This document shows, one piece after another, positions 11,636-62,145 of a stretch of 64,000 nucleotides of DNA. Position 1 is the first letter of the stretch. Each line of letters begins with the position of its first letter. The stretch is from assembly GCA_951406725.2 (NCBI GenBank), contig OX597814.1:3286001-3350000 (forward strand). The letters are read 5' to 3'. Under the pieces are notes generated by a model. It worked only from the letters and a program-made list of their open reading frames with translations. It searched no databases and was not told the origin of the DNA. Source of the stretch: Octopus vulgaris. Taxonomy: Eukaryota. Made by a program: the position numbers and the translations under genes.

Positions 11636-12181
11636 CTGAGTTTGACCTGGATTTCGATCGACTTCTTGATAATGCTGAAGTTGCTTTAAACATACTGGTG
11701 GCTGGGTGAAAACCAAGTGGAGTCGAGCTGTATTCAGTTCCGGTCATGTAGGAAGGATAACTGGTCATGTGATGAGCCGGGTGAGTTGATCCGTGTGTGT
11801 TGAGAAAATGCGGGATTCCGGCAGCCCCCGTAGCGCCACCACTGCCAGCGTTGCTGCTCGCTAAAATACCATTTTGATGGTCGTTCTCATCGACTGCCTT
11901 AAAAGGTTTGTTCTCTGTGTTATAGTCGCCATGGTTAGCACCGCCATTGATACTGTCCGGACTGGTGTCTTTTGGTGGAGTTGGCGGGAAACTGAATGAG
12001 CTAGATGTGGCAATCGAGGTAGGGGGATGTACAGACAACGGTGCAGTGGCGTTTGGATGAGTGAGGGACTTGCTGAAGGGATTCATCCAACTGGGACTAG
12101 AGTGAGCCATTACTGGCTTGCTCTCCGCTAACCACGGATGAAGCGGCGTGTGAAAATGTGGTCGACAGACTTGAGCGCTGC
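11636..12181 (-). CDS. GATA3: Internal coding exon of a GATA1/2/3-class (GATA2/GATA3-like) zinc-finger transcription factor: N-terminal activation region, ending just before zinc finger 1
   Basis: Translation GSAQVCRPHFHTPLHPWL...SPSWMNPFSK...FSFPPTPPKDTSPD...HHMTSYPSYM..EYSS..FHP...RSKSRSNS matches GATA2/3 motifs (GSQVCRP, PWL, SPW..PFSK, FPPTPPKDVSPD, YP.Y). Acceptor ttttcacag|GC at 12182/12181, donor TCAG|gtatgt at 11636/11635. Length 546 nt, phase 1-1, the same intron positions as vertebrate GATA2/3 before EGRECVNC. Invertebrates have one GATA123 gene, so the symbol is approximate. Confidence 0.95.
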
Positions 12182-52530: not shown

Positions 52531-53155
52531 CAGACAAACAAGCAGTTACAGATATACATAAATACACACACACACACGTGTATGTGTGGGTAGGCAAAGG
52601 GAGAGATTTGTATATTTATATTATAGTAACAGAAATAGAAAGAGACAGACGAGTGAGGCTTGCAAGATTAAACATCCCAGTCATAAAGAGAGACGGTGTC
52701 AGAGAGAGAAATCTTTAACGAGCAAGAAATGCAAATAATTAAGATATTTATATTGATTGCAGAAAGAAAATCCAGAAAGAGAAAGGAGAGAGAGAGGAGA
52801 AAATAATGTTATAAAAATGAAGAACTTACAAGGAGGTATATGGCGTCCAGCAAACAAACAGGAATGGCTACAAGTGTGAAACCTAAACAGATATGTATAT
52901 ATGTATATATGTATATGTATATATATAAATACGCGCGCACACACACACAATGTACTGGATGTGTTGTGTAGAGTAGAAGAGAAACACCAATGGTCGTCTG
53001 GCGGCCTTCATCTATTGTTTTTCCTGAGTTTCACTCCCTAAATATGTCCTACTTCACATTTCACTTGGCTCCCAACATCCGTCAACACATTCAACATACG
53101 CACACACACACACACACACACACTCACACAAAACGCACGCGAGCACACACACAAC

Positions 53156-60676: not shown

Positions 60677-61038
60677 AGTAAAGATTGTTTGCCAACATAA
60701 CATGGCAGTCCTGGTTTAGGACGAATGTGGCTGTAATTTAGCCCCAGGAGACATCGTCCCCTGCTGGCTATACGACACGATCTGTGTCCCTATATTTTTG
60801 AACAAGGGAATCTAGCAACCCCACTCAGCTCAAAACATCTGTATCTGTGTAACCCGGAAATCGCGATACACAGATATTGTTTTGGGCTGCGTTGGGGTGC
60901 TAGATTCCCTTGTTCAAAAATATAAGGACACAGATCGTGTCGTATAGCCAGCTGGAGACGATGTCTCCTGGGGCTAAATTACAGCAACATTCGTCCTAAA
61001 CCAGGACTGCCATGTTATGTTGGCAAATAATCTTTACT
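60677..61038. mobile_element. 362-bp palindromic foldback element (MITE-like)
   Basis: Arms of about 175 bp, AGTAAAGATTGTTTGCCAACATAACATGG... and ...CCATGTTATGTTGGCAAATAATCTTTACT; short spacer near 60852-60866. Confidence 0.9.
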
Positions 61039-61454
61039 CCAATTCCCAATAAGCTGTGAAAATCAATAAATCGACGTAGATAATATCTAATAACCAGGTT
61101 AGTTCTAAAGAGAAGCTGTTGACTAAATAAATTCTGTAAGCTGAAGAAAAGAGAGGGGGAGGAGGGAGGGGAAGTGTGTGTGTGTTTGAGGGAGAGAATG
61201 AGCGAGTGTGCGCGTGCGTGAGCTGGTTTTATATGTCAGAGAAAGTGTATGAGTGAGAATGTTAGTGAGTGAGTGGAGGGGAGAGAGAGAGTGTTAGTGA
61301 CTAAATAAGAAAGCGAGTGAGTGAGTGAGCGAGAGTGAGTGAGAATGAGGAAGAGAGAGAAGGGGGAGGAGGGAATTCAAGGTGCGGAGTATGAAGAAGA
61401 AGAAGCTGGACGAGTGTGATTGAGAGAATGTGAACGAGGTCGGTAATGTTTAAG

Positions 61455-61520
61455 ATCCCGGAACTGGCAGCCATTTCGTAGTTTGTTTACATCTGTTTAG
61501 TGGAGATAATAATTAATGAG
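61455..61520. promoter_or_regulatory. Candidate autoregulatory enhancer: E-box-N8-GATA composite with Fox, ETS-like and homeobox motifs
   Basis: CATCTG (61490-61495), TTTAGTGG, AGATAA (61504-61509); overlapping TGTTTAC; CCGGAA at 61458; TAATTA at 61510. Confidence 0.55.
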
Positions 61521-61659
61521 GAGATCGCCATCAGCTTGCAGAGACGACATGTCGCGAAAGGAGTCGGGAGAGTTTGAGACAGACAACTGCAGAAATGGCA
61601 CGGCGGCGGCGGACTTCAATGTGGCTCGATGCGAGGGTCATTCAGTGCCTAAATCTGTA

Positions 61660-61713
<54 letters not shown>

Positions 61714-61999
61714 TGTGTACTCAATAATGAGCTCAGTAGCAGTCATCGATATACAGGTCCCATTGGTTTCATGTAAGTTGGGTCTGATTATAGCTTTACA
61801 ACACGATATTAGTTACGATCGTCAGGCTTGGCTGATGATTTTAACAAACATCGTGTTGGGAAACACCCTGGTACTTAGTCGTTTCTACGCTTCACACGAA
61901 GACAATGGGTCTTTACTTTTATTGTTGCGTTGTATTTAGTATATAATAAAGAACTTAATCTTCGTGGAAACTATACGTATACAAAGCAATACATACATT

Positions 62000-62043
<44 letters not shown>

Positions 62044-62145
62044 TATACACAAACACACAAACACAGAAACACGCACAAGACAGATGCGTTAGAAGCACAC
62101 ACAAGCACATGAGTCTGTGGATGTATATGCATATAAGAAGTATTC

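Follow-up and report, generated by a model that had tools for sequence, protein, structure and literature searches.

The question raised by this locus is whether a short composite of an E-box and a GATA site in the octopus GATA1/2/3 gene is a working regulatory element, akin to the +9.5 enhancer of mammalian Gata2, or an accidental match within a very long intron. In the 64,000-nucleotide stretch of DNA analysed here, hereafter the window, CATCTG-TTTAGTGG-AGATAA is present at 61490-61509 of the plus strand, as the earlier note had claimed. It is the sole match to the exact pattern CATCTG-N8-AGATAA, and the pattern was matched in 2 of 100 shuffles of the window. The looser pattern CANNTG-N8-WGATAR has likewise 1 match in the window against 1.24 expected, and 69 of the 100 shuffles match it.

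The composite, consisting of the E-box CATCTG, an 8-bp spacer and the GATA site AGATAA, runs antisense to the GATA1/2/3 gene and is surrounded by several further words. The heptamer TGTTTAC (61484-61490, plus strand) shares its last base with the first base of the E-box, and the homeodomain-like palindrome TAATTA (61510-61515) adjoins the GATA site, both at the places described before. A second heptamer, TGTTTAG, can be read from the sequence at 61494-61500 of the plus strand, where it overlaps the end of the E-box and the spacer; it begins 10 bp after TGTTTAC, and the tandem words thus stand on either side of the E-box and contribute some of its bases. Both heptamers are forkhead-like by consensus. 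The word CCGGAA at 61458-61463 (plus strand), previously described as ETS-like, is indeed present 5' of the E-box and is the sole GGAA/TTCC core in 61400-61660, but it fails the stricter ETS pattern [AC]GGAA[AG][TC].

The identity of the host gene is clear. The minus-strand exon at window positions 12181-11636 has its matches among GATA-3-like proteins from octopus and further molluscs, and mapping of full-length relatives onto 264 kb yields five coding exons of the minus-strand gene: the first at G000:C1:3414188-3413967, the second or activation-domain exon at window positions 11636-12181, the ZF1 exon at G000:C1:3267258, the ZF2 exon at G000:C1:3223611 and the last at G000:C1:3212179-3211724. 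The best match of the zinc fingers, tested on the relative P0002, is human GATA3, and the paralogues on C4, which look GATA4/5/6-like, differ from this gene in the finger linker. Protein matches, exon mapping and the finger comparison all bear out the proposal that this is a mollusc GATA1/2/3 locus. The five-exon mapping places the motif (C1:3347490) in the first coding intron, which spans ~116 kb; the first coding exon lies ~66 kb upstream of the motif and the activation-domain exon ~49 kb downstream of it, and the position 5' of the latter exon that had been given for it can therefore be refined to an intronic one.

Other parts of the gene structure bear on how the intron may be used. A possible alternative 5' exon at 52830-53011 (minus strand) matches the N-terminus of the related proteins P0001 and P0054 and terminates at GTAAGT, a donor whose phase fits the following exon; its frame is broken here, and it would therefore be at most non-coding. 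Alternative 5' exons are joined to the activation-domain exon in P0001, P0054 and P0061, of which the N-terminus of P0061 has no match within the intron. Together with the short forms P0051, P0055 and P0056, the 52830-53011 match and P0061 hint at alternative 5' exons and at isoforms with a shortened N-terminus, and the alternative 5' exons among the related proteins imply that the long intron may hold a promoter. Elsewhere in the gene, a 72-nt in-frame cassette exon lies at G000:C1:3284735-3284806 (minus strand), ~1.2 kb outside the window start, and inserts 24 residues just ahead of the first zinc finger. The sequencing runs X7 and X10 show it both spliced in and skipped, and proteins of octopus, Argonauta and more distant cephalopods likewise include forms that have it and forms that lack it.

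The motif is set in a single-copy island at 61400-61660 that has one match in the genome, itself, in a search that skips very common words. No local repeat covers 61051-62100, and the island lacks the many genome copies of an interspersed repeat, whereas a search of this kind did pick up the neighbouring MITE; the claim of a non-repetitive island is thus upheld. This MITE-like inverted repeat (60677-61038), with 161-nt arms that are 94% complementary, adjoins the island and is of high copy number, with 2545 candidates in the genome, the best of the 40 that were scored being ~87-91% identical. On the other side, at 61799-61858, lies a short inverted repeat whose 27-nt arms are 81% complementary, and a sub-threshold Rfam match to a microRNA precursor also falls there. 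The island is comparatively rich in GC and CpG (48% and 15, respectively, in 61420-61659), both values being in the top 5-6% of 1226 overlapping windows, and contains GCCAT/ATGGC cores at 61470, 61527 and 61595, three such cores being present in 1.2% of 1226 windows. The cores are YY1/Pho-like by consensus. The non-repetitive setting as such adds little, since 52 of 84 CATCTG and 119 of 201 AGATAA words in the locus also lie outside detected repeats (an upper bound, from local comparison only); ~46% of the locus is free of tandem and local repeats.

A genome-wide count of the motif, which the earlier note had put forward as a measure of background, gives 402 exact copies in the 2.8-Gb genome G000, or one per 7 Mb, against 339 expected from local hexamer frequencies, but the N8 spacing itself is not enriched. 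The same half-sites occur 408 times with an N6 spacer (p = 0.86 for N8 versus N6) and 546 times with an N10 spacer, the latter count being partly due to a repeat family. The 8-bp spacer is therefore not preferred genome-wide and the motif occurs at its background rate. A control with the pattern read backwards has 177 genome copies; the enrichment it would imply was rejected, since this control alters dinucleotides and the spacer controls abolish the effect. The chance of at least one exact copy amounts to 0.9% per window, in fair agreement with the rough estimate made earlier for 64 kb, and rises to 2.9% over the coding span of ~202 kb and to 3.7% over the 264 kb analysed, the locus rather than the window being the fair unit. 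In the 264-kb locus, CANNTG-N6-14-AGATAA is found at 3 sites against 7.2 expected, the locus having been scanned as separate pieces such that a motif spanning a 10-kb boundary could be missed.

The surroundings of the GATA site were compared with those of 337 AGATAA sites in 464 kb, using a limit of 45 bp. A loose forkhead word is present within this distance at 139 of the sites, GGAA at 146 and TAATTA at 27, and all three loose motifs occur together at 4, the site at 61490-61509 among them. The exact words are rarer (TGTTTAC at 6, CCGGAA at 5 and TAATTA at 27 of the 337), and the exact triple is found at none, because the CCGGAA of our site starts one base beyond the 45-bp limit. The accessory cluster is thus uncommon, but its members were named post hoc. 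Matches to the forkhead-E-box-GATA pattern in metagenomes, 13 in number, were discarded as chance occurrences since none extends beyond 28 bases. The 100 kb around the tal-like gene contain no CATCTG composite and 1 relaxed one, and the 100 kb around one GATA4/5/6-like locus none and 3, respectively. A single-copy CAGGTG-N9-AGATAA lies ~30 kb upstream of the tal-like bHLH exon at G000:C28:12450191-12450211 (minus strand). It occurs at background rate and ends 14 bp before a plus-strand CAG|GTAAGT donor, and because of this donor it is probably located inside an exon.

Variation among close relatives gives a mixed picture of constraint. Among 24 sequencing runs listed, none is identified as ATAC or ChIP and none is from a distant cephalopod. 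The island is contained in 10 of them, which carry three organism labels and are all near-identical to the window; the island comparison (61045-61655) covers four of these ten (X4, X7, X8 and X10), and the control comparison covers four runs on the ZF1 exon and its flanking intron. Another run, X12, has none of the island's words and on the control shows only repeat-derived pieces. X7 carries two alleles, one of which equals the window over the pieces listed, while the second carries 14 differences over the 414 bases of 61095-61508, six of which fall in 61403-61478; a further X7 piece has a substitution at 61541, shared with X10, and small indels at 61539-61566. RNA editing could account for up to five of the changes in X7 (A>G, T>C), and some allele differences rest on contigs of depth below 5. 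Between the variable parts lies a 62-bp block, 61479-61540, in which one shared contig represents both X7 alleles without a difference. It includes the forkhead, E-box, GATA and TAATTA words and has no listed difference in X4, X8 or X10 either. At the local rate of 17-23 events in 490 bases, a 62-bp invariant gap is expected by chance with p of 0.054-0.116, a post hoc and non-significant value, and a 20-30 bp invariant motif with p of 0.25-0.5, so the block is a weak hint of a constrained core. The flanks of the island, unlike the 62-bp core, vary freely among these near-identical relatives, the only ones in which conservation over a ~150-bp core, as in the vertebrate enhancer, could be read.

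The run X4, which bears another organism label, differs from the window at 2 of 580 island bases compared with 16 of ~730 intronic control bases (Fisher p = 0.004). This was rejected as proof of constraint, because an X7 allele differs at 14 of 414 bases over the same stretch, and shared haplotype ancestry explains X4 and X7 more simply. That two alleles within one RNA run differ by 3-5% over 61095-61584, more than X4 differs from the window, suggests old or shared haplotypes in this region.

None of the ten runs that contain the island is recorded as RNA; X7 and X10 prove to be RNA runs in which the gene is expressed, as loose ends from the ZF1 exon match the ZF2, activation-domain and 72-nt cassette exons. 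Contig depth cannot rank the parts of the gene. Their contigs run across the island unspliced, as they also do across the intron beside ZF1, and among the pieces listed no splice joint is seen at the island in either run, though a rare exon may exist there. Contigs of both runs end at 61095 with no loose end listed, and the DNA run X4 continues to 61076. The bases at 61095|61094 read G|GT on the gene strand, and a donor-like GTATGT is found on the plus strand at 61657. The stop at 61095 could reflect the end of a transcript, the start of an antisense one or a break in the assembly, and it is less than a weak hint because X7 and X10 come from one study. The plus-strand frame 61516-61656 has no relative among longer proteins, which is a weak test, and is disrupted by indels between alleles, which appear in contigs of low depth. 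A comparison with Rfam produced two matches, both far below the family threshold.

Genes for most of the partners that a TAL-GATA complex would need are present in the genome. A TAL-like bHLH is encoded on C28 (E 3e-30 to TAL1), an E-protein-like bHLH on C18 and an LMO-like LIM domain, with the subtype left at LMO-like, on C11; the translated matches comprised all 41 for HLH and 30 of 42 for LIM. A search for LDB1/Chip with PF01803 gave no matches, and likewise none in the controls. Genes of the TAL, E-protein and LMO families are general to animals, and their presence therefore says little about this site. As for the cells in which the site might act, those of Platynereis that express gata123 and tal are presumably GABAergic neurons, and a working octopus site could therefore be neural rather than blood-related. 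Co-expression of the two genes in Platynereis is given in a figure legend of PMC8445025. For molluscs, published work reports a GATA2-like transcript in the squid white body (PMC4361686), 'Gata3-1', the GATA paralogue being taken as named there, in squid haemocytes and endothelial cells (PMC12240821), and higher CgGATA3, CgSCL and CgRunx in the haematopoietic sector of the oyster gill (PMC12468279). Partner-like genes together with GATA3-like and SCL transcripts in blood-forming tissue of molluscs make the TAL-GATA mechanism proposed earlier possible.

Weighing these observations, we give an approximately even probability to the site being an accidental match of 12 bases within ordinary single-copy intronic DNA that takes no part in recruiting a TAL-GATA complex. 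The octopus copy would then be a product of drift, as most of the remaining 401 would be; the AT richness of the genome and a gene extending over more than 200 kb would have favoured such a match, and the neighbouring forkhead, ETS and homeodomain words would have been picked out after they were seen. This reading rests on the background copy number, the lack of spacer preference, the unenriched locus and the normal single-copy context, and also on the location outside the +9.5 intron, the single GATA site, the missing 3' ETS site, the uneven constraint on the island and the commonness of loose accessory motifs near AGATAA sites. Against a chance origin stand the per-locus probability, which is still just 3-4% for a site that was expected beforehand in this one gene, the invariance of 61479-61540 in four runs, the low X4 divergence, the GC and CpG content, the rare co-occurrence of accessory words and the partner genes. 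When chance is set to ~0.035 per locus, autoregulation is assumed at 0.05-0.3 and the exact form at 0.1-0.2, the posterior for a functional site spans 0.12-0.63 under these priors of our own. The invariant core and the GC- and CpG-rich setting raise the odds of some function, and the missing 3' ETS site, single GATA site, other intron, variable flanks and absent spacer preference lower those of a +9.5-type function.

That the site is a working E-box-GATA enhancer core with TAL-GATA autoregulation, each binding step being inferred, is a possibility we regard as rather unlikely. CATCTG would be occupied by a dimer of TAL and an E-protein and AGATAA, one helical turn away, by GATA1/2/3, with LMO and LDB bridging the two, and the complex would act back on the GATA1/2/3 gene in precursors of haemocytes, in the lining of vessels or in neurons positive for Gata123 and Tal; such an enhancer would have arisen independently of +9.5 or via site turnover. 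Exact +9.5 half-sites and spacer in an orthologous gene, at 3-4% by chance, are consistent with this, as are the 62-bp invariant core, the TAL-like, E-protein-like and LMO-like genes and the GATA, SCL and tal transcripts reported in part for squid, oyster and Platynereis cells. The weight of these points is reduced by the unenriched spacer, by the p of 0.25-0.5 for an invariant motif of the 20-30 bp defined a priori, by the lack of a CATCTG composite in the 100 kb around the tal-like gene or the one GATA4/5/6-like locus, and by the generality of the partner genes. The narrower proposal that octopus GATA1/2/3 may autoregulate via TAL/E-protein-LMO-LDB-GATA at a site evolved separately from +9.5 appears slightly less probable again. 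Less probable than either, the island may be regulatory by some other logic, with the E-box spacing incidental, and would act as a forkhead-GATA-homeodomain core or as an internal promoter or source of a low-level transcript with GCCAT sites. The tandem TGTTTAC and TGTTTAG, the three GCCAT cores with high GC and CpG, and the alternative 5' exons that suggest a promoter in the intron would fit such a role, and the invariant core and low X4 divergence are compatible with any constraint. However, the motif labels follow consensus sequences chosen post hoc, no splice joint is seen at the island among the listed pieces of two RNA runs, the plus-strand frame lacks a protein relative and is broken by indels, and no Rfam match comes near its threshold. 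Finally, the same gene family and the identical half-sites and spacer could point to a direct orthologue of Gata2 +9.5 and gata2a i4 inherited from the bilaterian ancestor, which we consider highly improbable because the vertebrate element is in the fourth intron, the octopus zinc-finger intron has no match to any of 8 patterns, and the homologous region is absent even from zebrafish gata2b (PMC7018942).

At present the octopus site belongs to a known E-box-GATA motif class by its sequence only, is one of 402 copies and matters little. If it were functional, the comparison of cephalopod and vertebrate blood and vessels would move from shared expression to shared regulatory grammar, and a 20-bp, directly mutable element would become available for testing convergence against deep homology. 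Should the autoregulation be true, it would be cis-regulatory evidence for the same Scl-Gata wiring of blood and vessels, or of neurons, in a mollusc with closed circulation. In the open-licence PMC and bioRxiv literature we found no study of cephalopod GATA1/2/3 cis-regulation, and such work may exist elsewhere.

The octopus site resembles the mammalian +9.5 and zebrafish i4 elements in having a CATCTG E-box, a spacer and a GATA site within an intron of a GATA1/2/3 gene. Unlike those, it is located in the first coding rather than the fourth intron, is antisense, has a single GATA site and no 3' Ets motif, the sole GGAA in 61400-61660 being 5', and is a predicted element only. The human position c.1017 is, on residue numbering, taken here as the junction of the two zinc-finger exons; the octopus gene has an intron at the corresponding junction, and these ~43.5 kb contain no match for all 8 composite patterns. 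Given the different intron, the empty zinc-finger intron and the lack of a 3' ETS site, the octopus element is, on this comparison, not a +9.5 orthologue, and the deep homology with Gata2 +9.5 that had been considered is left unsupported. PMC8664263 describes the human +9.8 element (c.1017+512 to +572) as an E-box, spacer, GATA and 3' Ets motif, with all three motifs required for reporter activity, and PMC7018942 describes the zebrafish homologue in intron 4 of gata2a, where a 150-bp conserved core has GATA, E-box and Ets sites, and a gata2b without the homologous region.

A broader class provides a closer counterpart. The octopus site fits the sequence definition of a '+9.5-like' element in its strictest form, judged by sequence alone, whereas functional members such as the Samd14 enhancer are further defined by GATA and TAL1 occupancy. 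The +9.5-like cistrome was reportedly defined by Hewitt in 2015. The class is given as CANNTG-N6-14-AGATAA in PMC7605252 and PMC10587717, the latter also reporting an occupied intronic TRAK2 site that is dispensable; CATCTG is reported to be enriched at GATA2-occupied loci in progenitors (PMC5220053) and the Samd14 enhancer to be near-identical in its composite (PMC7242717). The complex proposed for the octopus, which would join TAL and GATA1/2/3 on the latter's own gene, also has a counterpart in a protostome. In Drosophila, a complex of Pannier, Chip, dLMO, Achaete/Scute and Daughterless acts on achaete-scute. It is alike in combining GATA, bHLH, LMO and LDB proteins, and it differs in its GATA factor, in the proneural bHLH and in its target. 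Since this GATA-bHLH-LMO-Chip complex is known (PMC3088666; also Ramain 2000 and Asmar 2008, by title), the architecture is neither restricted to vertebrates nor new to protostomes.
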